IMG/VR virus record: IMGVR_UViG_3300017963_000308
Span: 1-58,421 of that record
DNA: 58,421 bases
From: a virus
Lineage: Duplodnaviria; Caudoviricetes
Strand: one strand, 5' to 3'
Translations under genes and position numbers: made by a program
In this document: in pieces, positions 4 through 41,022 of the stretch
Layout: the number at the start of each line of letters is the position of its first letter
Position numbering within the stretch: the first letter of the stretch is position 1
The notes under the pieces: model-generated
Seen by the model: only the letters and a program-made list of their open reading frames with translations
Told to the model about the DNA's origin: nothing
The model's database searches: none

Positions 4-95
4 TTCTCCTATAGCTAACAATTTGAATAGATTAATTGCTTAACAATCTTCACAAGGCAGGATTATATCTTGTGAAGACTATAAGGAATCAATCC
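4..95 (-). repeat. Family-B intergenic hairpin repeat plus start-associated sequence, copy 1
   Basis: 92 bp identical to 686-777; core inverted repeat TCTTCACAAG-N12-CTTGTGAAGA; ends in TAGCTATAGGAGAA on the minus strand. Confidence 0.95.
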
Positions 96-301
96 AGGAA
101 ACTCGATACAATAATGCTATTGTCTTCTCTATCCCAAAGATAGGTATAATTAAAACGGAATCTCCACGGAGAATATTCCATGGTTTGTCTAATTGCCGCG
201 ATTCTGTTTGGCGGCGAATTATTAAACCCAAACTCCATCGATCTTATTACATCAGCCCACATGGGACATGGGTATAATAATCCCTTATGATAAAAAGCCA
301 T
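89..301 (-). CDS. Small hypothetical protein (array cargo)
   Basis: 70-aa ORF, RBS AGGAG; stop codon lies in the family-B repeat arm. Confidence 0.8.
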   Translation of the reverse strand: MAFYHKGLLYPCPMWADVIRSMEFGFNNSPPNRIAAIRQTMEYSPWRFRFNYTYLWDREDNSIIVSSFLD

Positions 302-332
302 TTTATTTTCTCCTATAACTAACCTGCTTTTA

Positions 333-389
333 ATTAATCGCTCAATAAGATAGACAATGGATCCATTGTCTACCCTATGAAAGATTAAT
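333..389 (-). repeat. Family-A 57-bp hairpin repeat, copy 1
   Basis: ATTAATCGCTCAATAAGA-TAGACAATGGATCCATTGTCTA-CCCTATGAAAGATTAAT; perfect 22-bp palindrome at 351-372. Confidence 0.97.
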
Positions 390-678
390 CGCGCTTAACG
401 GTTTCCCATGCCAGCGTAAACTTCTCGCGCCATGTTTCTGGCACCACTTCAAGATTAAACCTCACGTTTTGACGGTGCTTATTTTTCAATCCTTGCACCA
501 CTGCCACAATAGCCGCATCGAGGCTGAATCCGCTAGCCATTAGCATGCCAACTACCGCGACCACCACGCCGCGCTGATAATCAGCATTCGCTCCGGAATC
601 TGTTTCCAATAATTCGAGAGTATCATGAAAAATATTTTTGTTTTTAATACTCTGATACTTCTTATTTTTCAATTCCAT
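385..678 (-). CDS. Small hypothetical protein (array cargo)
   Basis: 97 aa, AGGAG RBS; stop TAA inside the repeat arm. Confidence 0.85.
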   Translation of the reverse strand: MELKNKKYQSIKNKNIFHDTLELLETDSGANADYQRGVVVAVVGMLMASGFSLDAAIVAVVQGLKNKHRQNVRFNLEVVPETWREKFTLAWETVKRD

Positions 679-685
679 TTTATTT

Positions 686-777
686 TTCTCCTATAGCTAA
701 CAATTTGAATAGATTAATTGCTTAACAATCTTCACAAGGCAGGATTATATCTTGTGAAGACTATAAGGAATCAATCC
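686..777 (-). repeat. Family-B hairpin repeat plus start-associated sequence, copy 2
   Basis: Identical to 4-95. Confidence 0.95.
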
Positions 778-993
778 TTAATAAGTGACTACAATGTTAA
801 GTTCTTTGCCCAAAATAATCATATTCGATATATTTTGAGCTAAGAAAACATGGGGTGATTCATTGCCCACAGAAAACAAACCATTGTCTAATTCTGCAAG
901 AATCCCATAATCGATTCTACTTGTTCTATGCAAGGTAACATTTTCACCCGCATGCTTTTTTAATTCGTTAATAATAATAATATTTTGGTTCAT
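778..993 (-). CDS. Small hypothetical protein (71 aa, MNQNIII...)
   Basis: Start moved to ATG 993 with GGAG RBS, coupled to the stop of 995-1252. Confidence 0.75.
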   Translation of the reverse strand: MNQNIIIINELKKHAGENVTLHRTSRIDYGILAELDNGLFSVGNESPHVFLAQNISNMIILGKELNIVVTY

Positions 994-994
994 T

Positions 995-1252
995 TTATGC
1001 TCCATATAAAGCCAAGATCTTAGCGCATGCGATTCTTTTATCTGTGTCTTCTCTTGTATCCCAATTCCTAAAAGCGGTATAATATCCATTGTCATAGAAA
1101 ACAGAGCAAACCTTGATTCCGTCAATAGTTGCGCAAACATCACCGTAAATAATATAGTCTTCATTGTTTATAGTGAACGAATCCTTACCAGATAAGACAA
1201 CACTCATGGTGTCATCAGCCCAGTTTTCCGGATTGATAGTAACAGTTTGCAT
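995..1252 (-). CDS. Small hypothetical protein (array cargo)
   Basis: 85 aa, acidic, CTATAGGAGAA RBS. Confidence 0.85.
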   Translation of the reverse strand: MQTVTINPENWADDTMSVVLSGKDSFTINNEDYIIYGDVCATIDGIKVCSVFYDNGYYTAFRNWDTREDTDKRIACAKILALYGA

Positions 1253-1283
1253 GGTATTCTCCTATAGTCTAATGGGTTAAAAT

Positions 1284-1330
1284 CTTAATAAATTACTCAA
1301 GATTTTATGGTTTCTTGAGTAATCTATAAA
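1284..1330 (-). repeat. Family-C hairpin (single divergent copy)
   Basis: ATTACTCAAGA-N10-TCTTGAGTAAT with the same TTATAG / TTATTAAG basal motif as families A and B. Confidence 0.8.
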
Positions 1331-1333
1331 ATG

Positions 1334-1627
1334 TCAACCGTAATACCATCCAACTACAACGAAATCATTGTCATCTGTAAAATGCACCAGAATTCCAGAA
1401 AAGAAGGAATCTGACGCATAACCATGCCAGTAGTCGGGAAACATGCCGCTAGGGAATCTCGTAAACTCTCCCAAAGAATAGATATTACCTTTGTACCTAA
1501 AGAATGACATCTCCTCTATTTCTTCGGGAGTCGCCCAGTCAAATTTTTCCTTTTCTTCTTCAGTCAACTCGAAACCGCAGACCACTTCACGCTCATGGTA
1601 ATTGCTAGTGATTTTTAACTCACTCAT
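1334..1627 (-). CDS. Acidic, aromatic-rich phage hypothetical protein
   Basis: 97 aa; FFRYKG..Y and WHGYASDSFFSGILV resemble a family I recall from phage early regions. Confidence 0.85.
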   Translation of the reverse strand: MSELKITSNYHEREVVCGFELTEEEKEKFDWATPEEIEEMSFFRYKGNIYSLGEFTRFPSGMFPDYWHGYASDSFFSGILVHFTDDNDFVVVGWYYG

Positions 1628-1660
1628 TTTAGATTCTCCTATAGCTAATAACTTTTTAAC

Positions 1661-1717
1661 ATTAATCGCTCAATAAGATAGACAATGGATCCATTGTCTA
1701 CCCTATGAAAGATTAAT
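1661..1717 (-). repeat. Family-A hairpin repeat, copy 2
   Basis: Identical to copy 1; 1622-1717 is identical to 2521-2616 (96 bp). Confidence 0.97.
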
Positions 1718-1994
1718 CAGAGCAATAGCCTACTATGCCACGATAATATTCCCATGGGTCAATCTTGTTTTTAACGACATGCCAGCCATGCTCCAAATCG
1801 CGAATATCGCGGCGAGTCAATCGCAAAACATAAACATTGTTTTCGAGGTTGTAGTCTTCAATATAGTGTTCATGTCGTACCATCGCTCCTATGTCCTGAT
1901 ATTTTGCAAGGTGATTCTCTATTTCTTTTTGCATCTTTTTGGACGTGGGTTTAACAGTATATCCACAAAAAACCGGTTCAATAATTACTTGCAT
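1713..1994 (-). CDS. Small hypothetical protein (93 aa, MQVIIEP...)
   Basis: True start at ATG 1994 after TAGCTATAGGAGAA; the longer track ORF reads through a repeat. Confidence 0.85.
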   Translation of the reverse strand: MQVIIEPVFCGYTVKPTSKKMQKEIENHLAKYQDIGAMVRHEHYIEDYNLENNVYVLRLTRRDIRDLEHGWHVVKNKIDPWEYYRGIVGYCSD

Positions 1995-2025
1995 TTTATT
2001 TTCTCCTATAGCTAATCTGCTTTTA

Positions 2026-2082
2026 ATTAATCGCTCAATAAGATAGACAATGGATCCATTGTCTACCCTATGAAAGATTAAT
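2026..2082 (-). repeat. Family-A hairpin repeat, copy 3
   Basis: Identical 57-mer. Confidence 0.97.
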
Positions 2083-2085
2083 TTT

Positions 2086-2526
2086 TTATTCCCAAAGATC
2101 AGAATCCTCAAACGGCCAAAATCCATAGTCTGCCCCATCTCCAGGATGACTCCCGAAGTAACAATCTTCTGGGGCAATTTCATTTAGCATATCGAAGCAC
2201 TCATCTAGTAGCCACGTAGAATCCTCTTCAGAAACATCATGGTAGTACCAAAAATCCCCATGCTCTTCCGGCGACATATCGCGATACAATTTGGTGCCGA
2301 ATACTTGGGTCAACCAATTTTGAGCAAATGGACGAGTCTGCACCACCAGATAATTATGTTCTGTTTGCATCTTAGCGACTCGTTCCGCGTCTTCTCCATC
2401 GATATAACCCAATTCCGCGGCCGCGGTCAGCGCGTCCAAAAAGGATGGTAATAAGTCTTCAGTTTTCATAGTGGCAGTGGATAAACTCGAGCAAACATCA
2501 CTTTGGGGTAATTGCTTAAAACTCAT
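2086..2526 (-). CDS. Acidic phage hypothetical protein
   Basis: 146 aa, D/E-rich; C-terminal YFGSHPGDGADYGFW motif recalled from phage early proteins. Confidence 0.9.
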   Translation of the reverse strand: MSFKQLPQSDVCSSLSTATMKTEDLLPSFLDALTAAAELGYIDGEDAERVAKMQTEHNYLVVQTRPFAQNWLTQVFGTKLYRDMSPEEHGDFWYYHDVSEEDSTWLLDECFDMLNEIAPEDCYFGSHPGDGADYGFWPFEDSDLWE

Positions 2527-2559
2527 TTTAGATTCTCCTATAGCTAATAACTTTTTAAC

Positions 2560-2616
2560 ATTAATCGCTCAATAAGATAGACAATGGATCCATTGTCTAC
2601 CCTATGAAAGATTAAT
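2560..2616 (-). repeat. Family-A hairpin repeat, copy 4
   Basis: Identical 57-mer. Confidence 0.97.
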
Positions 2617-2719
2617 TACCATGCCACCCAAAAATTGCCCATTTGGTTTGTTTCCAGAGGCAATATAGAGAAACAAGAAGCCCGATAGTACCTAATAATT
2701 CTGTATAATTGATATCCAC
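2612..2719 (-). CDS. 35-aa putative membrane peptide (not in ORF track)
   Basis: GGAG RBS, GTG start, MDINYTELLGTIGLLVSLYCLWKQTKWAIFGWHGN; stop in the repeat arm like other cargo. Confidence 0.6.
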   Translation of the reverse strand: MDINYTELLGTIGLLVSLYCLWKQTKWAIFGWHGN

Positions 2720-2722
2720 TTT

Positions 2723-2938
2723 TTATACTCCTATGCTTTGCACCAGATTAATTCTTTTCCTTAAGCTGTTTGGAATTGATAACAAACTATGGTCAATAGT
2801 TAACAAATCGTTGTCATAATCGAATACCAACGCGTTATTAACCTTTTTAAGCAACGTTTCCGCACCTTTTTGTAATCCCTTAATATCATAAGCGATTGGA
2901 CCAAAGATTTCGTTATTCTCAGCATATATCTTAATCAT
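2723..2938 (-). CDS. Small hypothetical protein (array cargo)
   Basis: 71 aa, AAGGA RBS directly after a repeat. Confidence 0.8.
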   Translation of the reverse strand: MIKIYAENNEIFGPIAYDIKGLQKGAETLLKKVNNALVFDYDNDLLTIDHSLLSIPNSLRKRINLVQSIGV

Positions 2939-2958
2939 GGTTTAATTCCTTTTGCTTA

Positions 2959-3015
2959 ATTAATCGCTCAATAAGATAGACAATGGATCCATTGTCTACC
3001 CTATGAAAAATTAAT
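2959..3015 (-). repeat. Family-A hairpin repeat, copy 5
   Basis: 57-mer with one substitution (AAAAATTAAT end). Confidence 0.97.
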
Positions 3016-3233
3016 TAGCGTCGGGTAATATCTGTGACCCCAACATTAATCGAATTCGTGTTATAATCCCAACTTAAAATACTGTTTTGACTGAATTCGA
3101 ATCCAAACGTATCAGAATTGATATACAAATTTTCGTTTTCTAGTACCTTAAGTTTGCCCACGCAATAACCAAATGGGTGATAAATTATAACAGTATACAA
3201 TTCTAAAAAAGCTTGTAGGGTTTCTTGGTTCAT
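3015..3233 (-). CDS. Small hypothetical protein (array cargo)
   Basis: 72 aa, TAGCTATAGGAGA RBS. Confidence 0.8.
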   Translation of the reverse strand: MNQETLQAFLELYTVIIYHPFGYCVGKLKVLENENLYINSDTFGFEFSQNSILSWDYNTNSINVGVTDITRR

Positions 3234-3266
3234 TTTATAATCTCCTATAGCTAATAACTTTTTAAC

Positions 3267-3323
3267 ATTAATCGCTCAATAAGATAGACAATGGATCCAT
3301 TGTCTACCCTATGAAAAATTAAT
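3267..3323 (-). repeat. Family-A hairpin repeat, copy 6
   Basis: Same variant as copy 5. Confidence 0.97.
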
Positions 3324-3339
3324 TACTTGTGCTTCTTTA

Positions 3340-3453
3340 CTACATCCCTAAAAGCGAGAAAACAATAGCAGCATAAGAATCAGCCCAGTTAATTCCAATA
3401 ACCAAAATACCCAATAGGGCAGCAGAAATGCCAAATTTGATTAAGCTTAACAT
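3340..3453 (-). CDS. 37-aa putative membrane peptide, first gene of the array (not in ORF track)
   Basis: ATAGGAGAAA RBS, MLSLIKFGISAALLGILVIGINWADSYAAIVFSLLGM. Confidence 0.65.
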   Translation of the reverse strand: MLSLIKFGISAALLGILVIGINWADSYAAIVFSLLGM

Positions 3454-3488
3454 TTTAGTTTCTCCTATGGTTAATAATTGCGTTTTAT

Positions 3489-22781: not shown

Positions 22782-22786
22782 AAGAC

Positions 22787-29119: not shown

Positions 29120-29128
29120 GAGTAAACA

Positions 29129-29584
29129 ATGAAACTCAAGATCTTTCTTATGTTAGGGTTACTTATATTGGCGTTTGGTTTAATGACCGGAGTCGCTTTT
29201 GCTCAGGATGTACCCCCGGAAGCCCCGCCTACGGCGGTTGAGGGAGTCCAGTGGTTGGCGATATTCCTTACTGCGGTAGTGGGACTTTTCGCCAACCGGG
29301 TTGTGGAGTTTATTTCCGGGTTGGGTTTTCTGAGTGGGGATGATAAAGAAAAGCTTCGCCAACCGGTACTTGATCTTATCGCCGCGGCGGGAGCAATTGG
29401 TTTGGGTTATGTGGTTGCTTTCCTTACCCCGGTCGCGGAGATGTTTGATGAACGTGGCTTGTGGGCTATCGTGATCGCCGCATGGCCGGTTGTATATGCA
29501 TGGTATCTAGCTCAGAAAGCTACGGGGCCGAAACGAGTTGTGGAAACAATTCTCGAACTTTTGCCAGAAACGGCGGATAAGTAA
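29129..29584 (+). CDS. Membrane protein with signal peptide and about 3 TM segments (holin-like, uncertain)
   Basis: AFA-Q cleavage motif, hydrophobic segments, AGGAG RBS. Confidence 0.65.
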   Translation: MKLKIFLMLGLLILAFGLMTGVAFAQDVPPEAPPTAVEGVQWLAIFLTAVVGLFANRVVEFISGLGFLSGDDKEKLRQPVLDLIAAAGAIGLGYVVAFLTPVAEMFDERGLWAIVIAAWPVVYAWYLAQKATGPKRVVETILELLPETADK

Positions 29585-30267
29585 TGATTGGCCTAGTTGT
29601 TCCAAGTTACAATGATAGGCGATTTTTGGAACAACTTTTCACGGGCCTAGTAACCACTTGGGCGGGGTATTCGTACTCCGCCCTTGTGGTTGACGATCTA
29701 TCTACGGACGGCACCAGAGAATGGCTTATCGATTCTGGTATAGACACGTTGGCCCTGGAAAGTAAAGGATATTTTACCGGTGCATGTAATGCCGGGATCG
29801 ACTATTGGATGAAAAATAGTCAAAATCTCGAATTAATTCTTTTGCTTAATTCGGATACTATTCCGATTCACAGGTGGGCAATCGAATTAATTTCTACCGT
29901 TAAAAAGATGGATGCCGGTATAACGGGATGCACTTTGCTTAACCCAGATGGCACGCTGCAGCATGCCGGGGGATATGATGCCGGTTATCACTTTGACATT
30001 AATAAGCCATGGATGCGATTTCATCAAGATCGCTATGTGCCATGGGTAACCGGGGCGGCAATGGCGATCAGGCCGGATGTTATACGAAAGATTGGCCTAC
30101 TGCCATCCAAGCGGGGGGAACAATATGATGCGTCTGATAGAAATTATTGCGCCAAAGTTTGGTTGGGTGGATTCCAGATCGCGGTAAGCGCGCTCAGTAA
30201 TTTTTATCATCATACTCATGAGGCCAGGGCGATCAGGTTGCCTAGAGGGGATTACGTGTTACGGTGA
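29584..30267 (+). CDS. Glycosyltransferase family 2
   Basis: VPSYN, VDD.STDGT, LLNSD, LQHAG, VTGA. Confidence 0.92.
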   Translation: MIGLVVPSYNDRRFLEQLFTGLVTTWAGYSYSALVVDDLSTDGTREWLIDSGIDTLALESKGYFTGACNAGIDYWMKNSQNLELILLLNSDTIPIHRWAIELISTVKKMDAGITGCTLLNPDGTLQHAGGYDAGYHFDINKPWMRFHQDRYVPWVTGAAMAIRPDVIRKIGLLPSKRGEQYDASDRNYCAKVWLGGFQIAVSALSNFYHHTHEARAIRLPRGDYVLR

Positions 30268-30806
30268 AATACTATGATTTGGGTGATGATTTACGAAAAC
30301 AATATCAAGATGCCCTGCAAAAGCATATAAAATCGGTCCAAGAGGCCGGGAAAGAATTAGGTGTTTCTCCCCATTTGTTAATGATACATGACCTGAGTAA
30401 GTGGTCAGAAGAGGAATTTGTTCCATATGCCTTGCACTTTTTCGGGGGTGGCGCGCCTAATTTGTTTGCTCCGGCATGGTTACATCACATTCACTACAAC
30501 CCCCATCACTGGCAACATTGGGTTTTCCCAGACAACTTTGAACTAAAGGGGGCAAATACTTTTCAGGGAACAGTTATGATGCCAGAAGAGTACGCTTTGG
30601 AAATGATTGCTGATTGGATTGGGGCAAGCAGGGTGTATAGCAATACCGATGATATGTCAAAGTGGCTTAGAAAAAGTGTTCCGAAGATCAAGTTGCACCC
30701 CGCAACACGTGAATATGTAACCAAAATTCTTAAAGACATAGGGTACAAGTCTTTATTCGAAGAAATTCAATTCTCGGATTTAAGGGAAGGTAATGGCGAT
30801 GACTAA
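30264..30806 (+). CDS. HD-domain phosphohydrolase (DUF5662-like)
   Basis: HDLSKW...EF, AWLHH...NPHHW, EM.ADW. Confidence 0.85.
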   Translation: MKYYDLGDDLRKQYQDALQKHIKSVQEAGKELGVSPHLLMIHDLSKWSEEEFVPYALHFFGGGAPNLFAPAWLHHIHYNPHHWQHWVFPDNFELKGANTFQGTVMMPEEYALEMIADWIGASRVYSNTDDMSKWLRKSVPKIKLHPATREYVTKILKDIGYKSLFEEIQFSDLREGNGDD

Positions 30807-31827
30807 ATTGGCCTTAGTTCGCGATAAGCATCTTAACTTACATGATATCGGCAATTACTATGGGCTGACCAAACTGGGAGTAGACCTGCTTTTGTGTGGT
30901 ACGCGCAAAGCCCCATGGGATCAAATAATGGAAATGTACCCGTTAGCTACACCGGTTTGTTACTCTGAGTTGTATGAAGTATTTCACCATGATCCTGATG
31001 TCATCGATGTCCCTGATGCCTTTTATGATTTTAGCAGATATTTTGTTGATCGGTTTGAAAAAACCGTTGTGGTAACCTGGGAGAATCTACCGGGGAAAGT
31101 TAGTCTAAATCCTGTTGCACTTGAGACATTGCGTAAAGCGTGGAAGGTAACGGCTAGAAGTGGATTGGCCTTGTATACTGATATTCGTATGCATGAAATA
31201 GATTTCAATAAAATCTTTTATATTCCGGGGGCGGTTGATACGGACTTTTTTCAGCCCCCCCCAACTCCGCCAAAAAACAACGTTGTTTTATTTGTGGGTC
31301 GATTGACCCAAGAAAAAGGCATTTTAGATTTAATTTGGGCGGCCAGCGTAACCGATGATATACACGTTAATGTTATTGGTGAGGGGGATCCGATTTACGA
31401 ATCGTTGGCAAATCACTATGCGCCCGGAAAATTTAATTTTCTTGGTCATGTTGACCGAAAATATTTACCCCAATGGTACCAACAGGCCAGTGTATTTTGC
31501 TTACCAACTCTTCCTTTGCTTAATGATCATGATCCTTTTGGGCAATGGGTTGAACAGTTTGGGCAGGTTTATATAGAAGCCATGGCCTGCGGTTTGCCTA
31601 TTATTACGTATTCAAGTCCAGTTGTGCAAACCATTATTCCCCGAGACACTCCCATGATAGCTCCGCGTGATTGGGGGGGATTGGCTTATATGCTTGCTAC
31701 CTATTCAGATCCAAATAATATTACATATGATTGGAAAGCCAATTCTGAGGCAAGTCGCAAGCGTGCTCTTGAAAAATTTTCGCAAATAGAAGTTGCCAAG
31801 CGAATCAAGGATTGGTATGAATTATGA
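30793..31827 (+). CDS. Glycosyltransferase family 4
   Basis: VD...F.P, FVGRL..EKG, EQFG...IEAMACGLP. Confidence 0.93.
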   Translation: MAMTKLALVRDKHLNLHDIGNYYGLTKLGVDLLLCGTRKAPWDQIMEMYPLATPVCYSELYEVFHHDPDVIDVPDAFYDFSRYFVDRFEKTVVVTWENLPGKVSLNPVALETLRKAWKVTARSGLALYTDIRMHEIDFNKIFYIPGAVDTDFFQPPPTPPKNNVVLFVGRLTQEKGILDLIWAASVTDDIHVNVIGEGDPIYESLANHYAPGKFNFLGHVDRKYLPQWYQQASVFCLPTLPLLNDHDPFGQWVEQFGQVYIEAMACGLPIITYSSPVVQTIIPRDTPMIAPRDWGGLAYMLATYSDPNNITYDWKANSEASRKRALEKFSQIEVAKRIKDWYEL

Positions 31828-32549
31828 ATATAGCCGTATGTATGATCGTGTTAAATGACGAAGATAATATCGGCCGCGCTCTACATAGTATTTATTGGGC
31901 AGACAGGTTGATTATTGTTGATGGCGGATCGGTCGATGGTACGGTAGACATTATTCAGAATCATTGTCCAATCCCGTATACGCTGATAAGGCAGGAGTGG
32001 GATAACCATTTCTCTAAACAACGTCAGTTTGCTAATAATGAGATGGCTAATTTAGAGAACTTATCACAAAATGTTTTTGTCGATGAAGGAGATTGGTGGT
32101 GGGTTAGGCTCGATTCCGATGAGCGATTTCCCAGAGAATGGGAGCAAATAACCCAACTTATCCCAACATTTCCCAAAGAGGTTGTTTGTGTCCGGGTCAG
32201 GCAGGTTAATTTATATCCAGATGTAGACACTTACTCAGCACGCCATGGGGGATGGGAAACGCACCCCAGACTATTTAAGAATATATTGCTTCCGAATGGG
32301 GGATCAGCTTGGAGATGGCAGGGGCAGGTACATGAATACCCTGAATTGATGACAACCCGGGGATTGCATTATCCCGATGGGGGAGAAATTATTGATGTTA
32401 GCTTGCCGGTTGATCATTATGGTTGGCTAGATCCTGAACGCAGGGCGGATCGAGAGTCGTTATACCTAGAAATGCCGGGATCTAATTTTCAGGCAGGTCA
32501 AATCACAAACAGAAAGCACGTAGTTAGAAAGGTTCCCAAATGCGAGTAG
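31824..32549 (+). CDS. Glycosyltransferase family 2 (beta-1,4-glucosyltransferase-like)
   Basis: VDGGS.DGT, FS.QR, LDSDE, VHE, HYG. Confidence 0.92.
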   Translation: MNIAVCMIVLNDEDNIGRALHSIYWADRLIIVDGGSVDGTVDIIQNHCPIPYTLIRQEWDNHFSKQRQFANNEMANLENLSQNVFVDEGDWWWVRLDSDERFPREWEQITQLIPTFPKEVVCVRVRQVNLYPDVDTYSARHGGWETHPRLFKNILLPNGGSAWRWQGQVHEYPELMTTRGLHYPDGGEIIDVSLPVDHYGWLDPERRADRESLYLEMPGSNFQAGQITNRKHVVRKVPKCE

Positions 32550-34963
32550 CGGTATATTGCGATCACGTTGGTAGTTCCGGGATTGCCCCAAACGACCAGT
32601 ATGGCGGCGGAGAATTTTTAACATTGGGGTATCTACACATCCTAAGTCAGCACTATGATGTAATCCCAATTGTCAATAATTATATATATCCCAATTTCGA
32701 CCATCCCGGTCGTTATGGATTGCCGGAAGCAAACTATAAGTGGAAGCCAATTGGCACCGATATGGGTTGGATCCGTAATTTTGATGTTTTTATCAATATC
32801 AGCCATGGTCGCATCTTGCCCCCGATTTGTCGCCGGAATATTCTGGTAGTGATGTTCCCCCAACACAAGGATTGGGACGTGTCCGGCTACGATACAATCA
32901 TCTCTATTAGCGAATATACTGCTAAATGGGTAAAGCGATACTGGGGTCGGGATAGTGATGTTGTGTATCCCCCATTGCCGGTACAGGCCATGACCACTAC
33001 AGAAGTCCAGAAATACCCTCAAATTATATCGGTTGGCAGATTCTTCCGGGTACCAGGGGGGAACAACAAAGGCCATGAAGTGCTTATCAAGTCTTTTCAA
33101 AACCTGTTTTTAGAAGACTGGAAATTAAAATTGGTTGGCAGTATTCAGGACAGAGCTTATTACAATGAAATGAGAGCCTTGGCCGGAGATGATCAGCGAA
33201 TAGAATTTGTCCATGATTTGTCAAGAGAGCAATACATGGATGAAATGCGAAGATCTCAGTTTTTGTGGGCGGCTACAGGATATCAATCGCTCGCTCCGTC
33301 CAGCAAAGAGCACTTTGGCATTATTGCGGTTGAAGCTATGGCTTCTGGTACTGTGCCCATTGTTAACAATTCTGGGGGCACTCCCGAAACCGGTGCGCTT
33401 ACTTGGGACAAACCAGTCGATCTAACCGAAATGACCCGGAAACTAATTGAAGATCGTGACAGGTGGATGGATGTTATTAAGGGTCAGATGCAAGGGGTAA
33501 TGAAGTTTGATTTGTCTAATAACAAACCCCTGTTGGATGTAATGGAAAAAGTGGTTGTGATTCAAAATGATCCAAGCAAGGGGCGAATCTATTCCGATTA
33601 CTCAACCCCGGACAAAGTTAAGATTGGGATATTATCAGATAGCCCTAATAGCACATTGGGGTTTGGTGTGGTGACCAGATCTTTGATCAGGGAATGGCAA
33701 AAAATGGGTTTTAGGATTGCTGCTTTTGGTCGCCATGATCCCCCCTCGCCTCATCCAAAACTTCCCCCAGAAGATATAATGGCTATGTTTAATCAAGTAA
33801 TTAACGATGATAGATTGGTTACCGGTCCTCAACAAATGGCCGTGCTTCGGGAGAAGTTAGCAGACAGGGGGGAGATTTGTACAATTTGGCGGGATCCTCG
33901 AGATGGATGGGATGGTGTTATCGATTTCATCAAACACGAAAAACCCGACGTGCTCTATATGAACTATGACATAGGAAACATAAGGTCTATTATAGACACA
34001 ATAAGGGCGGCCAGTATGACAATGCCGCCTTTTGTGGCTTATTTTCCGGTAGAGGGATTTCCCCTGCTTCATCAATACAATGAAACAATTCGCCTTATTC
34101 GATTACTTAATGGTGTTCCGGTAACCTATACCAAATTTGGGGCTATGGCTATCGCTCAGTCTGGTGGGCCACAAGTGGATTACGTGTGGCACGGGGCCGA
34201 TCATGCCAACTTCAGGAGATTAGATGAGCAGACTCGTAATGAATTGCGCTTTAGTGTAGGTGTTCATGATAAGTTTGTTTGTATGTTTGTGGGGCGAAAT
34301 AAGCGCACTAAAGGCATTCTTGGTTTAATCGAAGCGATCAAGGTGTTGAAAAATATGGGTAGGCATGATATAGTGTTTTATATCCATACATGGCCTAATG
34401 ATCGCATGCCCAATTCTTCGGCTCCGCTTGAAGAAATCGTGCGAATTGAGGGTATCGAAGACATGGTTATTTTTCCGGATGAAGATTTTAATCAAGTGTC
34501 TGGGGTACCCTTTGACAAAGAAATAATTATTCATGCTCAGGACACAAATGATCTAAAAGAAGTTCAAAGAATTAATTTGAAGTCCATGAACATGGTTGAG
34601 CGTTATAATTTGGCAGATTTGTATGTGAACTGTAGCGAGATTGGTGGATTTGAGTTGCCGTTGGTAGAAGCAATGGGTTGCGGTCTACCGATTTTAAGTG
34701 TAGACGACAAGGCCGCCCAAAGAGAAGTTTTGGGAGATACGGCCATGTATGTCGACGTGGCGCATTGGGACAGGTTCCATACATGGGCAAAGCTGGCGCA
34801 ATTTAACCCGGAACAAATGGCACAGGCCATACATGAAATATCCATGGATCCTAAAACACTGGCCGAATTTAGGTTGAAATCATCGAATCGATGGCAGCAG
34901 TTCAAATGGAAAGATACGGCCAAGGTATTAGCAGATGAGATATTGGAGCAACATTTATTATGA
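32540..34963 (+). CDS. Tandem double GT4 glycosyltransferase
   Basis: Two GT-B catalytic motifs, EHFGI..VEAMASG and GFELPLVEAMGCGLP. Confidence 0.93.
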   Translation: MRVAVYCDHVGSSGIAPNDQYGGGEFLTLGYLHILSQHYDVIPIVNNYIYPNFDHPGRYGLPEANYKWKPIGTDMGWIRNFDVFINISHGRILPPICRRNILVVMFPQHKDWDVSGYDTIISISEYTAKWVKRYWGRDSDVVYPPLPVQAMTTTEVQKYPQIISVGRFFRVPGGNNKGHEVLIKSFQNLFLEDWKLKLVGSIQDRAYYNEMRALAGDDQRIEFVHDLSREQYMDEMRRSQFLWAATGYQSLAPSSKEHFGIIAVEAMASGTVPIVNNSGGTPETGALTWDKPVDLTEMTRKLIEDRDRWMDVIKGQMQGVMKFDLSNNKPLLDVMEKVVVIQNDPSKGRIYSDYSTPDKVKIGILSDSPNSTLGFGVVTRSLIREWQKMGFRIAAFGRHDPPSPHPKLPPEDIMAMFNQVINDDRLVTGPQQMAVLREKLADRGEICTIWRDPRDGWDGVIDFIKHEKPDVLYMNYDIGNIRSIIDTIRAASMTMPPFVAYFPVEGFPLLHQYNETIRLIRLLNGVPVTYTKFGAMAIAQSGGPQVDYVWHGADHANFRRLDEQTRNELRFSVGVHDKFVCMFVGRNKRTKGILGLIEAIKVLKNMGRHDIVFYIHTWPNDRMPNSSAPLEEIVRIEGIEDMVIFPDEDFNQVSGVPFDKEIIIHAQDTNDLKEVQRINLKSMNMVERYNLADLYVNCSEIGGFELPLVEAMGCGLPILSVDDKAAQREVLGDTAMYVDVAHWDRFHTWAKLAQFNPEQMAQAIHEISMDPKTLAEFRLKSSNRWQQFKWKDTAKVLADEILEQHLL

Positions 34964-35373
34964 GGGATTTTACGCCTCCAATTAAAAAAACGAGATACAT
35001 TAAGCCGGAAATGAATCCTGAGCCACCCCCGGAAGGTACCCAATTTAGGTGCAATGGATGCAACAGAGAATTGTTTGGGGTGTTTGATGGAGTGGGAAGG
35101 CTTGTCATCAGATACGGGAATCGAGTAACCACTATTACCGGGATAGTTAATTGCGAGTGTCGCAAATGTGGAGTAGTAAACAGCATCGATACCAGAAAAG
35201 TGTCATACAAGATCGATGTTACCTATGGCACCATGTTAGCGGAACCACTTGCAACACAGGCAGCTATCCAATATGCGGAAAAGCATAACATCGATTTGAG
35301 GGAAATCCCGGCAAATGGCAAAGTCACCATCTCAGAAGTTAGACAGTTCCACGAAAGAGAGTCAGGAAGTTAG
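34960..35373 (+). CDS. Com-like Zn ribbon fused to an E3-binding (PSBD)-like domain
   Basis: RCNGCNR.L...CRKCG.VN plus ATQAA..YAEKHNIDL..I...GKVT..EV. Confidence 0.65.
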   Translation: MRDFTPPIKKTRYIKPEMNPEPPPEGTQFRCNGCNRELFGVFDGVGRLVIRYGNRVTTITGIVNCECRKCGVVNSIDTRKVSYKIDVTYGTMLAEPLATQAAIQYAEKHNIDLREIPANGKVTISEVRQFHERESGS

Positions 35374-35800
35374 GGCTATTCAAGCCTTAGTAGAAATCCT
35401 GAGTGAAAAGCTACAAGAAATTCATGTCATCACTAATCAATTAGCTGGCGTTGATGACGTTTTACGAGAAACATCTGAATATCTTGTTGAAAACTTTGCA
35501 AGAATAGATGAATCGTTGTTATTGATTCTTAGAAAATTAAACGGTGACGGAAAATTAACCAAAGCCCAACGTGACGATATCAAGAGAGATACTAAGGAAC
35601 TGGAAGCACAGGCGATCAAAAGTCGTATTCGCTCTTTAAGAATTCAGATATTACAACATCAAGAAAATCTCAACCGGCTAGAAGAAAAACAGTCTAGGGA
35701 AGGCGATGACTTTGCGACTACAAATGAAATTATCAGACAGCAAAGATTTATTAACGAGAAGCAGGAAAAAATTCTCGAATTGGAACGGGATCTCAAATGA
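35315..35800 (+). CDS. Coiled-coil hypothetical protein
   Basis: Heptad-rich, 161 aa. Confidence 0.7.
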   Translation: MAKSPSQKLDSSTKESQEVRAIQALVEILSEKLQEIHVITNQLAGVDDVLRETSEYLVENFARIDESLLLILRKLNGDGKLTKAQRDDIKRDTKELEAQAIKSRIRSLRIQILQHQENLNRLEEKQSREGDDFATTNEIIRQQRFINEKQEKILELERDLK

Positions 35801-36135
35801 TTTTTTTGTACATCTTCTTTAGCATTTTAGCCCTTGGCGGTAAACTGACGTTTTTCGGATGGCTTTTGTATGAGAAGTTGAGGGGTGCTAATTCGGTTAC
35901 GTTATTACTTATGGCCTTTTTCGCTCTGTTGTCAATAGAGCATCTTCTTATTTTAAGCACGCTGCTTACACATATTGGGATGCCCAATTTGTTAGTTAGA
36001 CATTTCGAGCTTCCCATTGTAGCGTTATATGCCATGGGAATTCTAAACTCGATTTTCTTGGTTTTTGTTATGATCGGAATTATCGTTGTTTTGTTGGAAG
36101 CACAGGAAAACAGGAGTGCAGTAAATGTTGACTAA
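35797..36135 (+). CDS. Three-TM membrane protein
   Basis: Hydrophobic segments, ATGA overlap. Confidence 0.75.
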   Translation: MIFLYIFFSILALGGKLTFFGWLLYEKLRGANSVTLLLMAFFALLSIEHLLILSTLLTHIGMPNLLVRHFELPIVALYAMGILNSIFLVFVMIGIIVVLLEAQENRSAVNVD

Positions 36136-36547
36136 AGCTTTTGTGAGAGCGGTTCGCGGCCGGGTAGAAGATGGAATTCAAGATCATGATGTAAGACAAC
36201 GGCTTGTAAAACGCCTGAAAACAATGGAAAGGCAAGTAGACAATTCCGCTCGATTGTTAGGGGAAGTGATAAGTATTTTGCAAGAGGGCCATGACTTCAC
36301 CAAAGATATTCGGGATGAAATTGCGGAATTGATTACTGACCAACAACACATGGACCAAAAAGAACTTGCCCGGATGCACCAAATTGGGTTGATGCTGGAT
36401 TTGGGGATGAATGATGTTTTGGTGCCATTTACCGAAGATGAGTGGACCAAGATGTTTATGCTTGTTAGTCCGGAAGTGTTTACTTCTGCCTTTAACGCAC
36501 TCCCCGTAGATAAGCGGGCCGCATTGATGGAGAACGTATTAATTTGA
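36125..36547 (+). CDS. Hypothetical protein
   Basis: AGGAG RBS, 140 aa. Confidence 0.75.
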   Translation: MLTKAFVRAVRGRVEDGIQDHDVRQRLVKRLKTMERQVDNSARLLGEVISILQEGHDFTKDIRDEIAELITDQQHMDQKELARMHQIGLMLDLGMNDVLVPFTEDEWTKMFMLVSPEVFTSAFNALPVDKRAALMENVLI

Positions 36548-36645
36548 CAACAGTCAGGGGACGAGCTAGAATACAAGTACATTTTGGTTTTTCCTTTGCT
36601 AGAGAGCTACCGCTTTGGGCCACAGGGCGGTAGCTCTCACTTTTT
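36544..36645 (+). ncRNA. Candidate sRNA unit 1 (promoter, anti-RBS segment, hairpin/terminator)
   Basis: TTGACA-17-TAGAAT; CATTTTGGTTTTTCCTTT; 12-bp stem 36602-36638 with GGCCAC; T run. Confidence 0.55.
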
Positions 36646-36750
36646 GACATCTATAAGTAGCATGGTATAATTTTCTTAGTTTTCAGCATAGGGTTTCCCT
36701 CCAAGTCCAAGAAGTCGCCTCTAGGCCACGGGGCGACTTCTGCCTTTTCT
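36644..36750 (+). ncRNA. Candidate sRNA unit 2
   Basis: TTGACA-16-TATAAT; CAGCATAGGGTTTCCCTCC; 10-bp stem 36710-36741 with GGCCAC loop. Confidence 0.55.
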
Positions 36751-36751
36751 C

Positions 36752-36895
36752 TTGACAGCAAAGAACAAGTGTGCTATTATTACAATGTAATATCTGTTGA
36801 TCAGCAAACAAGCCAAGGTATTTTTATAGCGCATAACTAAAAAAAATATCATAGTAAGACAGAGCGCACGGACGCCACTAGCAGCCGTGCGCTCT
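36752..36895 (+). promoter_or_regulatory. Promoter and hairpin leader of the head/tail operon
   Basis: TTGACA-17-TATTAT containing GAAC-AAGT-GTGC; 11-bp stem 36861-36895 with GCCAC loop just before the RBS. Confidence 0.7.
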
Positions 36896-36914
36896 TTGTA
36901 TTTTGGGAGAATTT

Positions 36915-38447
36915 ATGACGGTTTACACCGCTACAACTGTAAACTTGGATCGGGCAGACGACATGCGGGCGCAAGAGGACCGGTCGCGCCGGTATCGGAT
37001 TCAAATTAGGGAAGATGGCAATTTGGTTAAGCCCTCAGATTGGGCAGATTTGACCGACTCTCAGTGGGGAGATCCGGTCAATTATTTTTTCCCTGTGCCT
37101 GATAGGGAATATGCTGAAAGAGCCAAGATTGAGTTTACCGGTAGCCTGGAAGAATATGATGAAGAAAGCAGGCGCGTTATCGTTTCCAGGATTAATCGAT
37201 TGGCCCGGAAGTATAGCGTTGACCCAATTAGAAATACGGCCAATGAGTTGAGGTTTGATACTTCGGATGAGGGGCACAATATACGTGCTTCCATTACCGG
37301 TGAAGTAGTTATGACTGAAGATCCTGTGTCTAACGAAAGTGGTCCGGTAATGCAAATCGCCGCCGCCCGAAGAGCCGTATTGTATCATCCCTGGTTTGGT
37401 AAGATGATCCTGGATGATGACTTCTTTGAAAGCATGATTGACAACTGGGAAAGCCGCTTGCTTGGGGTTGACGTTGCTATTGATGCGGAACATCGCAATG
37501 GACCGACCGGGGGGATGGCCTTGGCTTGGGTAACCGGAGTTCATATGGAGCGCGATAAATTCATGTTGTCGGTTAAGCCGACGCAAACAGGCGCACCGCT
37601 TCTGGGTAATGAGTACCGGTATACCAGTATTGAATTTTTTACCAATTATTTTGAGCGAGAAATCATGGCCTATTACGGTCCTGCTTTGGTCGCATGCGCC
37701 GCGACTAATCTCCCCTTTGTGCATCGCAATGATCCTATCCAACCACGATTTCAGGTTTCCCAGTCTGATGTAGGGTTGCCGGTTGCATCTGTAATTGTGA
37801 GCGGTAATGGGTATACAACAACGGGTAGCACAACTAACGTGACTATTCAAGACAATAGTCAGGTCGCCGCTAGAGAGGCGGAAGATACTGGCGAGTCAAT
37901 AGAACCGGGCGAAACTGCCCAAGAAGGAGTTGAACAAATGACTGACCAAGCAACCGAAGTTATGCCGGAAGTTATTCACGCTGAAACCCTGGTCGTCGGT
38001 GATCGCGAATTTTCGGCTGATGATGTAAATGCGCTATTGCAGCAGCAAGCGGAATTGGAAAGGCAACGCGAGAAAGATGTCCTGGCATTACTGCAAGCTG
38101 AAGTTGATGCCGTGAGAGCCGCCGCTAATGACCGCGGTGTTCCGCCCGTGGCGATCCGCTATGCCTGTTCTTTGATGGCCGCGTTGGGCCGGGAACAAAC
38201 CGCCACTATCGTTATGGAAGATGGTAGCGAAAAAGAAATGACGACTTTTGAAGCTTTGAAAGCTTTGCTTGAAGCAATCCCGGGCAAAGCTGGAGAAGTA
38301 ACGCCGCGTGTAATTGAGGGTGAACGCCCCGATGACACCCATAACGGCGAAGAAAATATGACCTTGGAACAAGCTGAAGCCGCCGCCAAAGAAGCCCGCC
38401 GGAAATATAAGATCGGCAATTTAGGCGATCAGCAAGTGTCCCTATAA
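36915..38447 (+). CDS. Prohead protease/scaffold (Mu gpI-like) with N-terminal DUF6582-like domain
   Basis: ID.EH, A.AWV, YRY.S.EF, GPAL...A.TN.PF; acidic helical C-terminus. Confidence 0.88.
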   Translation: MTVYTATTVNLDRADDMRAQEDRSRRYRIQIREDGNLVKPSDWADLTDSQWGDPVNYFFPVPDREYAERAKIEFTGSLEEYDEESRRVIVSRINRLARKYSVDPIRNTANELRFDTSDEGHNIRASITGEVVMTEDPVSNESGPVMQIAAARRAVLYHPWFGKMILDDDFFESMIDNWESRLLGVDVAIDAEHRNGPTGGMALAWVTGVHMERDKFMLSVKPTQTGAPLLGNEYRYTSIEFFTNYFEREIMAYYGPALVACAATNLPFVHRNDPIQPRFQVSQSDVGLPVASVIVSGNGYTTTGSTTNVTIQDNSQVAAREAEDTGESIEPGETAQEGVEQMTDQATEVMPEVIHAETLVVGDREFSADDVNALLQQQAELERQREKDVLALLQAEVDAVRAAANDRGVPPVAIRYACSLMAALGREQTATIVMEDGSEKEMTTFEALKALLEAIPGKAGEVTPRVIEGERPDDTHNGEENMTLEQAEAAAKEARRKYKIGNLGDQQVSL

Positions 38448-38475
38448 GTAGCATAGGCTATAAAGGAGTAATAAT

Positions 38476-38883
38476 ATGCCTCTGTCACCAAGTATTACTA
38501 GCTACGAATTTACTAGGGATGACTTTGTATTAAACCCCCATGATGCCATTGTTGCAACGTATACCGCGGATTCGAACTACGTGGCGACTGAAACATTGGT
38601 AGATGGATCGACTCCGAAGCTGCTCCGGCAAGGAACGGTTTTGGCGATGAATCCGGCGAACTACAAAGTTGTTCCCAATTATACCGCTTACGGCTTTGCG
38701 GCCATCGGTATTTTGTATCAGGACTACAACGCGGACGACGGCGATGATGTTGTGCCGGTTGTGTTGGCCGCAGAAGTCCAAGAAGATGTGCTAGTCGATA
38801 ATGGCGTTTACGGTACCATTCTGGCCGCGACAAAAACCGCGTTGGCCGGTCGGGTGACCTTCCACGCCAGTAACCGGTTATAA
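38476..38883 (+). CDS. Head decoration protein
   Basis: Between protease and capsid; L..GTVLA...GIL..D pattern. Confidence 0.8.
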   Translation: MPLSPSITSYEFTRDDFVLNPHDAIVATYTADSNYVATETLVDGSTPKLLRQGTVLAMNPANYKVVPNYTAYGFAAIGILYQDYNADDGDDVVPVVLAAEVQEDVLVDNGVYGTILAATKTALAGRVTFHASNRL

Positions 38884-38906
38884 GGCCGGATAGGAGTTTA
38901 TAGAAA

Positions 38907-39980
38907 ATGGCTAAATACACCATCCCTGCCTTTCTGCGAAATCCGCAAATTTCCGGCATTGTGCGTACCACGGAACTACCTACCACGTATCTGTTTGACA
39001 GGTGGTTTCCTTATGACCCGGTTACCGCGGACGAGTTTGAAAGTCTGATTGTTCTCGATCAGGTAGATCTCGCCCCGTTTGTGGCGGTTGACGCCGCTAC
39101 GCCAACGATGCATGGCGATCTGATGTCCCAATTCAAATGGGAAGTCGCCTATATCCGATACAAGAAAGCCTTTAAGGAGAGTGATTTTCGGGGCTTCTTT
39201 GAACCGGGTGTTGGCGATCCTGGTACGCTGGCCTATGCTAATGCACAGGCCGCAGAAGCTAAAATTCGCCGCTATATCGATGCGTTGTCTTTGTCGGTTG
39301 ATGCCCGGAAAGAGTGGATCTTTACCAATGCGATTGCCGGGGCTATTTCGTACGACGATGATAACGTCCAGTTTGACCTGACTTTTGACGGTGCCTATAT
39401 GGGTGCTTCGCGGCGCAAAACCCCCTCGACTCTTTGGTCCGCCGCTTCGCCTACCATCGTAGCCGACCTGTCCAACTGGGTTGAAGAGATTTCCGACGAA
39501 ACCGGCATTGACGATTGGACCATGATGACCACTCCCAAGGTAATTGGCCTGATGGCCCGTGATTCCGGCATTCAACGCTTGTGGCAGAATACCAGTCGTA
39601 TTCCGGCTCCCCAAGATCCCGGCTCCCTGGATCCGGTAATGGGCACTCAACTACCCGGGGCTTTGTCGTTGCTTAACATCAACGGCTTGATCAAATACAC
39701 GGCGAAGTATTCTACCCTGAGCCAAACTGCTCTTGGGGCCGCTTCCAGAACTAAGACCCGTTTTATCAACGATAACGATGTTTTCTTGCTCCCGACCAAT
39801 GAGCCGCTTGGCCGATTCGCTTCGGCTCCGGCGCAACCCAACGAATGGCAACCCGGAAAGTTTGGGTGGACCAAAGAGCAAGTGGATCCGTGGGTCATAG
39901 AAGTTGGAGCGGGCGAATATACGTGGATTGATTTTCCGCCGCCCAATCATAATAAGGTTTTGCAAGCGCGAGTGGCCTAA
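38907..39980 (+). CDS. Major capsid protein (lambda gpE-like, HK97 fold)
   Basis: 357 aa; LFDRWFP, APFV..DA, R.EW....A..G, terminal DP. Confidence 0.92.
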   Translation: MAKYTIPAFLRNPQISGIVRTTELPTTYLFDRWFPYDPVTADEFESLIVLDQVDLAPFVAVDAATPTMHGDLMSQFKWEVAYIRYKKAFKESDFRGFFEPGVGDPGTLAYANAQAAEAKIRRYIDALSLSVDARKEWIFTNAIAGAISYDDDNVQFDLTFDGAYMGASRRKTPSTLWSAASPTIVADLSNWVEEISDETGIDDWTMMTTPKVIGLMARDSGIQRLWQNTSRIPAPQDPGSLDPVMGTQLPGALSLLNINGLIKYTAKYSTLSQTALGAASRTKTRFINDNDVFLLPTNEPLGRFASAPAQPNEWQPGKFGWTKEQVDPWVIEVGAGEYTWIDFPPPNHNKVLQARVA

Positions 39981-40510
39981 TGGCTAACAACGGGGATATC
40001 ACCCATACTGATATCGAATCGTTTCTTAAGATCGGTTCAGCGTTTCCGACCACATCTAACACAACGCTAACCGAAGATGATGTTGATGCGTTATGTACAT
40101 CCATAAATAGCGAAGTTAACCTAATCTTAACCGACCTTGGATTTTCGCTTCCGATTACCGCAACCGACTCTATCCAATGGCTTAAGATGGTTAAGCAGCA
40201 CGGGGCCGGATCGCTAGTCCTGGATGGGTTAGCCTCACAAGCAACAGAGGAAAACAATACCAGAGCACAACGTCTATGGGATCGTTACAGAAGTTGGCTA
40301 GACCAACTTATCGAGTCAGGGGGTGATATCCTCGATGCGCCAAAACAAACAGATCCGGTACCAAGTACCCTGCCTGTAGTTTTCGGTCAATATGATGAAG
40401 CACATCGCAAGCGATATCTCAGATTTCCGCAACGGGCCAGGGTAGATCACCTGGACAACGAAGAAGAGATAGCAGATAGTGACTTTGCCGGTCAGGTAAG
40501 GGGCTTTTAG
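39980..40510 (+). CDS. Head-tail adaptor protein
   Basis: Position after capsid; helical, I..EVN..L...GF.LP. Confidence 0.7.
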   Translation: MANNGDITHTDIESFLKIGSAFPTTSNTTLTEDDVDALCTSINSEVNLILTDLGFSLPITATDSIQWLKMVKQHGAGSLVLDGLASQATEENNTRAQRLWDRYRSWLDQLIESGGDILDAPKQTDPVPSTLPVVFGQYDEAHRKRYLRFPQRARVDHLDNEEEIADSDFAGQVRGF

Positions 40511-41022
40511 TGGCGTTTAATAACCCAGAAAGTGTAGCCAGAAATGTCCTTACTATTCATGAAAGCGATTATCCGGCAATCTTGGCAAGTGTGGTTTCTG
40601 AATGGGCCGCAACAGAGGATGTCGATCTCGAAGATTTTCATACACGCGTTCTCACGTCGCGGCCGAATGTTTTAGAGGAACATTGGATTTTACCGGCAAT
40701 GACGGTTGCGGTAATGGATCTAAAACCAACCGCTTCCGAACAGGCGTTTCAACAATACAAGAATTACTATGATCTGGAAATTGCAATAACTTACTTTTTC
40801 TCGCATGTGGATGCAAGAACGCTATCATTAATTATTTTAAGACACATGCAAGCAACCTTGCAATTTCTTGGCGAGAATCCAGGTGTTGGTTTAGCCGGTA
40901 GGGATGGAGTCCAAATCGAAACGGTGAGGATGACTCCGAGTTATACTGCCACATCTGGTAATGTGTACCGAAAAGGGTTGATGACCCTCTTCGATTTTAG
41001 AATGCTACAATATGGGCCTTAA
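40510..41022 (+). CDS. Neck/tail terminator-like protein
   Basis: Position and size; P...V pattern. Confidence 0.55.
   Translation: MAFNNPESVARNVLTIHESDYPAILASVVSEWAATEDVDLEDFHTRVLTSRPNVLEEHWILPAMTVAVMDLKPTASEQAFQQYKNYYDLEIAITYFFSHVDARTLSLIILRHMQATLQFLGENPGVGLAGRDGVQIETVRMTPSYTATSGNVYRKGLMTLFDFRMLQYGP

Follow-up and report, generated by a model that had tools for sequence, protein, structure and literature searches.

The virus record IMGVR_UViG_3300017963_000308 (Caudoviricetes, estimated to be about 70% complete) was analysed over its whole length of 58.4 kb (58,421 nucleotides, nt), hereafter called the window, and it contains a compact control region made of three promoter-terminator units. 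This region is placed between an open reading frame (ORF) of 140 amino acids (aa) without assigned function (36125-36547) and a protease/scaffold-like gene that starts with the ATG at 36915. As judged from their sequence signals, units 1 and 2 are most likely stand-alone small RNA (sRNA) genes, and unit 3 would be the promoter of the 21-kb virion operon, with a terminator placed ahead of the first ribosome binding site (RBS). With moderate confidence we interpret the ensemble, which borders the virion operon on its 5' side, as a composite control region that would combine the two sRNA units, the silencing of early genes by the RNA of the first one (family A, see below) and the gating of the promoter P3 by a terminator. 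The proposal, a variant on themes already known from phage sRNAs and late terminators, is wholly computational. The coordinates of all features are given in Table 1.

The promoters P1, P2 and P3 are near-consensus promoters of the sigma-70 type. The window contains five TTGACA-N16-18-TANNAT sites for 0.42 expected (none of 100 shuffled sequences reached five), and three of these five sites are P1 to P3. A preliminary description of this DNA had reported three TTGACA promoters, each with a different GC stem after it and with GCCAC in the loop. All of them were confirmed (promoters at 36544, 36644 and 36752), and the hairpins are strong and end in U-rich tails. In a crude hairpin scan, t1 (-29.2 kcal/mol) and t2 (-20.2 kcal/mol) are the strongest hairpin-plus-T-tract sites of the window. 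The terminator scan tool skips hairpins with loops of more than 8 nt and therefore missed t3. The end of this hairpin lies 19 nt ahead of the ATG at 36915, just before the protease RBS as had been described. The U-tract of t1 overlaps the -35 box of P2 and the U-tract of t2 overlaps the -35 box of P3; the units are therefore packed head to tail. In addition to unit 1, t1 terminates the long upstream operon (17.6-36.6 kb), in which no strong terminator was detected from the promoter at 17646 to t1. Hexamers of the form TAnnnT (TACATT, TAGTTT and TAATAT) are found 6-11 nt past the -10 boxes of P1 to P3 and not past three early promoters, which in A/T-rich DNA is weak evidence for a sigma-dependent pause element close to the promoter, as in the lambda Q module.

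In units 1 and 2, a short non-coding transcript with a predicted length of about 65-75 nt is enclosed by its own promoter and its own intrinsic terminator, and the sense strand is devoid of ORF. Whole-RNA folding gave z-scores of -6.6 for unit 1 (0/200 shuffles as stable), -2.5 for unit 2 (5/200) and -2.9 for unit 3 (1/200). The 5' parts of the first two RNAs, here called seeds, are largely unpaired in the minimum free energy and centroid folds. The earlier statement that they are reverse complements of translation starts holds to the letter: positions 36580-36597 are the exact reverse complement of the Shine-Dalgarno (SD)-spacer-ATG string AAAGGAAAAACCAAAATG, and positions 36680-36702 are that of GGAGGGAAACCCTATGCTGAAAA. 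A search of the whole window against Rfam gave no match at the gathering score; five terminator-like matches at 36747-36942, four of them on t3, were all far under the cut-offs.

The capsid protein was found to have 33 homologues in a large protein set, and locus searches returned 8 viral loci, 14 metagenomic loci and one genomic locus, most of them short or cut off. The DNA that precedes the protease gene is retained in only six distinct relatives: L006 (a contig that also appears as L012, L040 and L092), L007, L009, L010, L020 and L008, which lies within G001, a complete record of 83.4 kb with terminal repeats. A consensus promoter is present 30-650 nt upstream of the protease gene in all six relatives, and a U-tract terminator hairpin is located directly before the protease RBS in five of them (L006, G001, L020, L007 and L010); the leader of L009 is structured and has no clear U-tract.

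Two families of units can be defined from the seeds. Family A (seed CAUUUU...UCCUUUG, then a hairpin) is composed of unit 1 of the window, unit 1 of L006 and a unit at 28750 in G001, the last two at the same place as in the window. The seeds of L006 and G001 (CTCATTTTATTCTCCTTTGG and CTCATTTTATCCTCCTTTGT) are identical at 18 of 20 positions, and the promoter and hairpins around them are otherwise unalike: the accessible seed is kept among relatives while its flanks vary. Family B (UUUCCCUC(C)AAG, then a hairpin with GGCCA[C/A] in the loop) is composed of unit 2 of the window and a unit at 79350 in G001. The G001 copy comes after the last of a series of small rightward genes, with a converging gene on its other side, and thus cannot serve as a leader; this speaks for units that are independent genes and not only leaders. 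Apart from L006 and G001, a pattern scan for family A recovered only three contigs, all of them unrelated, whose copy of the string is a real minus-strand start site. The family B pattern, which demanded one base more than G001 has, gave 49 matches, by estimate about the number expected by chance. No unit of family A or B was found by the filters used in the distant relatives G002 to G004. The single-protein locus searches returned nothing, and a search with the protease contributed only L095 and L096, two distant loci that match a domain within larger proteins and are not informative.

The proposed targets of the unit 1 RNA are located in an array of about nine small leftward genes at the left end of the window. 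The array displays a GC content of 37% (45% elsewhere), and the near-identical 25-nt unit GTTATTAGCTATAGGAGAAnnTAAAATG precedes most of its genes, of which only two have PHROG matches, both to families of unknown function. G001 contains a homologous array (two protein pairs with 38% and 45% identity) at 69-75 kb, with the start site TAGGAGGATAA(n)AAAATG and with a consensus promoter just upstream, at 75460. The size of the genes, their position and their promoters suggest that the array is expressed early. The complement of the window seed is TAGCAAAGGAAAAACCAAAATG and the complement of the G001 seed is CAAAGGAGGATAAAATGAG, the latter matching the real gene starts 62020, 71440 and 74959 over uninterrupted stretches of 16, 15 and 14 nt. 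The mean duplex energy of the window seed is -17.1 on the 8 array sites versus -11.5 on the 57 other start sites (Mann-Whitney p = 3e-4), and array sites represent six of the ten top-ranked sites. For the G001 seed, the corresponding values are -21.5 on 13 array sites versus -15.4 on 83 others (p = 5e-6), with five array sites among the ten top-ranked. A plain anti-SD probe used as control showed no array bias (p = 0.98 in the window and 0.19 in G001). The observed bias was reached neither by pseudo-seeds made from other start sites (0/57 in the window, 0/83 in G001) nor by shuffled seeds (0/300 in each). Tested on the window array, the G001 seed had no preference (p = 0.25); seed and start site therefore differ together.

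Complementary targets beyond chance were thus found for family A, in two genomes, where the computed pairing covers the RBS of phage genes, and not for family B. The preliminary description had proposed modular antisense sRNAs with variable guides to be compared with the rest of the phage. From this proposal, the promoter-to-terminator units stand, as does the guide of unit 1, which is conserved in L006 and G001 and fits the array starts of the window and of G001; the guide of unit 2 has no convincing target in the window. No exact or near-exact target of unit 2 was detected there, and its best duplexes are unremarkable or not at credible starts. A site at 35315 (-25.7 kcal/mol) was rejected as a target, being inside a conserved coding stretch (PSBD, see below). 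The left end of the record truncates the array, and the targets of family B may therefore sit in the missing 30% or in the host. An imperfect pairing of unit 1 with the dnaN start had been noted as possibly due to chance, and dnaN does not stand out as a target: the start of this processivity factor (-19.9 kcal/mol) ranks 3/65, on par with several others, and no counterpart of dnaN was found in G001. Sequestration in cis was also discarded, the pairing of the seeds with the start sites of the protease, decoration and capsid genes being weak. The early array of L006 could not be identified from a scan with its seed complement, which gave generic matches (at least 118).

Concerning unit 3, the region from 38.4 to 58.4 kb of the window contains no plus-strand promoter above 9/12 and no strong terminator. 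Since no later promoter is present and t3 stands before the first late gene, the virion operon appears to depend on P1 to P3, and all transcripts would cross t3. A strong promoter with a terminator close behind it, placed ahead of the late genes and without any promoter further on, is the PR'-tR' layout of lambda, and five of the six relatives are alike. The preliminary description had alternatively considered the units as decoys for a factor that opens the late operon. The kernel of this idea, an operon opened by reading through terminators, is supported by the layout and by the relatives, and the read-through may be regulated. Neither the window nor the complete G001 yielded a sigma-factor domain (Sigma70_r2). 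A gene adjoining the promoter-terminator units in L006, G001 and L020 encodes a protein of about 137 aa that combines a four-cysteine Zn ribbon with an E3-binding (peripheral-subunit-binding domain, PSBD)-like part, an odd domain pairing for a phage (L006 3434-3850, L008 1400-1807 and L020 41-583). It is always located at the end of the glycosylation island described below. The AlphaFold model of the protein has a pLDDT (predicted local distance difference test) of 67.5; Foldseek found PSBD matches for the C-terminus only and no match for the Zn-ribbon part, and the Atlas search gave no match. As a speculation, this protein could be the read-through factor.

In the composite control region that we propose, the host-type promoters P1 and P2 would each give a short RNA of about 65-75 nt, ended at t1 or t2, with a single-stranded 5' end. 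The family A RNA would pair with the messages of the array from the SD to the AUG and block the binding of 30S subunits, which would help to shut off the array genes. The family B RNA, made by unit 2, would use its C-rich anti-SD seed on a target outside the window. P3 would drive the head-tail operon through t3, either by leak or with an antitermination factor, and in the same way transcription from P1 and P2 would reach the late genes as well. We regard as possible, and still doubtful, the more specific proposal of a multi-target "anti-start-site" RNA with a seed co-evolving with the array start site, in which RNA would replace the RegB and RegA proteins of T4 in early shut-off and the same PR'-tR'-like DNA would both gate late transcription and silence early translation. 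Host targets are also possible, by analogy with a lambda sRNA reported to act on host dnaN (bioRxiv 10.1101/2024.10.31.621285).

Several points weigh against this composite reading. Family A is carried by just three of the seven genomes, and the target test was possible in just two of them. The sets of start sites come from a crude gene caller (105 calls reduced to 65 in the window, 151 to 96 in G001), and the best window target, an ORF of 37 aa starting from 3453, had come up in the genome-wide scan and was then included manually. The p-values overstate independence because the array start sites are repeats of each other. The specificity of the window seed is partial, since this seed also favours the G001 array to some extent (p = 0.002). 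The seed complement of L006 is a common phage start-site 17-mer present in at least 118 stretches of the viral collection; a generic strong start site, inverted, is thus part of the signal. The seeds of family B show no target enrichment (p ~0.99). The promoter and terminator calls use the general bacterial consensus, which may not be that of the host. Antiterminators of the Q families PF06530 and PF03589 were detected in neither of the two records (window and complete G001), and NusG is likewise absent from both. Finally, a promoter that looks constitutive would make the silencer together with its targets, which leaves the timing logic unexplained.

Four other explanations were considered. 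That the region is purely a late switch, with all three units of the PR'-tR' type holding the virion operon for an antiterminator and with short RNAs that are by-products without action in trans, is unlikely. Such a switch fits the terminator that immediately precedes the first late gene, both in the window and in five of six relatives, as well as the 20 kb downstream, which contain no other promoter or terminator. In lambda, the Q gene adjoins PR', and the small Zn-ribbon gene adjoining the units in L006, G001 and L020 can be likened to it. However, a pure switch gives no reason for L006 and G001 keeping the seed rather than other parts of the leader, and it leaves unexplained both the seed that mirrors the start sites of the phage's own array and the family B unit with nothing downstream. 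The window and G001 also contain no protein of the Q or NusG type, and the Zn-ribbon protein shows only a PSBD-like fold, at its C-terminus. We consider distinctly unlikely a combination of insulator and booster, in which t1 would end the upstream operon, strong promoters would restart transcription for the scaffold and capsid genes through leaky terminators without any factor, and the anti-start strings would be relics of inverted start sites. The start-site-like 17-mer is indeed common in phages. A relic would not retain the complement of SD and ATG at the same place in three lineages with capsids that are only 62-67% identical. The capsid genes need a high expression and the upstream operon has no strong terminator before t1, but three stacked promoter-terminator pairs are an odd design for a boost. 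The pre-protease terminator of L006 has about 16 pairs and a tract of seven U; a leak is therefore unlikely there.

The GCCAC loops were at the origin of another explanation, in which modular RNAs with variable guides would have their common loop bound by one protein, either a chaperone or an opener of the late operon decoyed by the units. GCCAC is present in the loops of all three window hairpins in spite of their differing stems, and in none of the hairpins examined in the relatives, so that the conserved protein-binding loop of the preliminary description was not retained. The apical parts of t1 and t2 are alike (CGC...GGCCAC.GGGCG); these hairpins are therefore possibly paralogues, and shared descent accounts for part of the recurrence. 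By eye, t3 and the post-seed hairpins of all five sRNA-type units have the looser motif CCA[AC] on the 3' side of their loops, versus 109 of 1238 background hairpins (9%); this motif was defined post hoc, and 3 of 13 entries were mis-sliced in its count. Its recurrence is unexplained, and it is missing from the pre-protease terminator loops of L006 (ATTA), G001 (TGGAAT) and L010 (TTGT). No Hfq gene was found in the phage either, and on the whole we hold the common-loop explanation to be very unlikely. Barely credible, in turn, is the idea that the SD-ATG strings are the real starts of tiny genes on the minus strand, despite the perfect spacing of SD and ATG. The frames opened by the antisense ATGs comprise 132 aa (a serine-rich shadow ORF inside the plus-strand gene 36125-36547), 12 aa, 6 aa (L006) and 2 aa (G001), and no conserved peptide was found among them; moreover, the promoters and U-tracts face the plus strand and the neighbouring genes are all on the plus strand. 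Minus-strand genes were rejected because their frames are short or a shadow.

To our knowledge, few phage-encoded sRNAs have been characterised. Trans-encoded sRNAs with a 5' seed and a Rho-independent terminator are represented by RybB and OmrA/B, and C-rich seeds are found in the staphylococcal Rsa RNAs. Units 1 and 2 resemble the RybB and OmrA/B type by their own promoter, their unstructured 5' seed, their U-tailed terminator hairpin and their predicted pairing with SD and AUG. Unlike in this type, the seed spans the whole SD-spacer-AUG and would be aimed at the phage's own genes. The 6S RNA of lambda is of the same kind as the PR'-tR' short transcripts, and PR'-tR' of lambda is a late-terminator layout. 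According to PMC7547250, StxS is the short PR'-tR' transcript of Stx phages, is ended at tR' and is a working sRNA; an always-on late promoter, an immediate intrinsic terminator before the late genes and a base-pairing short RNA are predicted here in the same way. The region described here differs from StxS: it shows no likeness to it in sequence or by Rfam, lacks a Q gene and contains three stacked units. Its proposed targets are early starts of the phage itself (host rpoS or toxin mRNA in the case of StxS), and one family member is located away from any late operon.

PMC12197685 presents the c4 RNA of P1/P7 and the sar RNA of P22 as small antisense RNAs that prevent the translation of a phage gene by covering its RBS; each belongs to an immunity circuit, has a single neighbouring gene (ant) as its target and is cis-encoded or in the same operon. 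Unlike these RNAs, the seed described here is unlinked, lies about 33 kb off on the other strand and fits 8-13 repeated start sites, with no Rfam C4 match and no single linked target. In T4, the endoribonuclease RegB (GGAG) and the repressor RegA (A/U-rich AUG regions) inactivate many early messages through a shared feature of the initiation region (PMC3014915). The outcome proposed here would be alike, with an RNA acting by base-pairing in place of these protein agents, and the likeness would be one of function only. In the literature surveyed, each RBS-covering phage sRNA acts on one neighbouring gene. If our proposal is true, phages can time the shut-off of early genes by RNA and not by a nuclease or a repressor protein. 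It would also describe a compact late-gene switch, which fits its three promoter-terminator pairs into 350 bp, for a group of phages that has neither cultured relatives nor a recognisable antiterminator or sigma factor; the read-through factor, if it exists, is likely of a new kind.

Table 1. Features of the window discussed in the text, in the order of units, proposed targets and surrounding genes.
Feature	Position	Strand	Remarks
Promoter P1	36544-36572	+	TTGACA-N17-TAGAAT, 11/12; -35 box overlaps the TGA stop of ORF 36125-36547
Unit 1 seed (family A)	36580..36601	+	CATTTTGGTTTTTCCTTTGCTA; predicted single-stranded; reverse complement of SD-spacer-ATG
Intrinsic terminator t1	36602-36638 (hairpin), element to 36645	+	16 pairs; tail ACTTTTT; U-tract 36641-36645; GCCAC 36619-36623
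Promoter P2	36644-36671	+	TTGACA-N16-TATAAT, 12/12, TG-extended
Unit 2 seed region (family B)	36680..36709	+	Contains CATAGGGTTTCCCTCCAAG; near-identical TTTCCCTCAAG in the stand-alone unit at 79350 of G001
Intrinsic terminator t2	36710-36741 (hairpin), element to 36751	+	12 pairs; tail GCCTTTTCTC (given as GCCTTTTCTCTT for the element 36710..36751); GCCAC 36725-36729
Promoter P3	36752-36780	+	TTGACA-N17-TATTAT, 11/12, TG; last consensus promoter ahead of the 21-kb virion operon
Unit 3 leader	36787..36860	+	About 75 nt, A/U-rich, without anti-start motif; weak promoter-like site 36823-36852 (9/12)
Terminator-like hairpin t3	36861-36895, with tail to 36905	+	11-bp stem; 13-nt loop; tail TTGTATTTTG; GCCAC 36874-36878
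Leftward small-gene array	89..3468	-	About 9 genes; repeated start site TTAGCTATAGGAGAAnnTAAAATG; proposed targets of the unit 1 RNA
Zn-ribbon and E3-binding (PSBD)-like protein	34960..35373	+	Gene adjoins the units in L006, G001 and L020
Protease/scaffold-like gene	36905..38447, including SD (GGGAG)	+	510 aa; ATG 36915; first gene of the head-tail operon
Lambda-D-like decoration gene	38476-38883	+	
E-type major capsid gene	38907-39980	+	
Large terminase	14382-16214		Upstream of the control region
Mu-like portal	16147-17634		Upstream of the control region
Consensus promoter	17646-17674		Upstream of the control region

All genes of the window are directed rightward, with the exception of the low-GC block at the left end. 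No cultured relative was found by blastn, and the capsid matches obtained by tblastn display only 21-24% identity, in Gordonia and Bacillus phages. Over 34900-37600, DNA contigs from two sequencing runs differ from the window only by a single C>A at 35947. Coverage of 36265-36810 is lacking in two runs that are more distant, and no variation is readable across the control region. No RNA sequencing run was listed for the interval 33000-41000 of the window. The interval between the portal and capsid genes contains an island of about 15 kb (19408-34963) that encodes GT1 and GT2 glycosyltransferases, a DegT-type aminotransferase, methyltransferases of the TylF type and others, and two sulfotransferases. 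This glycosylation island is also present in G001, with 44-54% identity, and probably builds a modified sugar that decorates the virion or the host surface.

The protease gene differs among the relatives. In G001 (L008 3985-5562), a prohead protease of the S49/ClpP type is fused to a C-terminal scaffold-like domain shared with the window (36915-38447); in the window, L006, L007 and L020, another N-terminal domain, without assignment, stands on the same scaffold-like C-terminus. The N-terminal domains thus differ on a conserved scaffold part, and the protease module has therefore been swapped.

Other observations concern the promoters and hairpins. The consensus promoters of the window at 5304-5332, 7405-7432 and 17646-17674 have in common the spacer motif TGTAAAGGTTT, which is absent from P1 to P3, and the G001 promoters at 14025, 28750, 76332 and 83066 have in common TTGACAAA(A)TT(T/A)CTAT. 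These spacer motifs may be operators between the -35 and -10 boxes for a phage regulator. The -10 box of P2 and its first transcribed bases (ATGGTATAATTTTCTTAGTT, window 36666-36683) recur without any change on the minus strand of G001, at an unrelated early promoter (about 57397), a possible sign that the initially transcribed sequence is under selection. In t1, the 3' arm contains GGCGGTAGC (36626-36634), which equals the first nine bases of the RfaH ops element; it is confined to one unit, and was treated as probably due to chance.

In G001, finally, an insertion is located between the family A unit and the protease promoter (about 28.98-30.72 kb; L008 2041-2200 and 2397-3782). It contains three direct repeats of 36 nt with a period of 62 nt and spacers of 26 nt, and an adjoining minus-strand protein of 461 aa with a helix-turn-helix domain of the IS605 OrfB type (TnpB/Cas12-like). 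Near-duplicates of the hairpin sequence CTCTGACTGTGGAA.C.GTCGGGG are present on both sides of the insertion, which may be a compact CRISPR-like or TnpB element in a phage.

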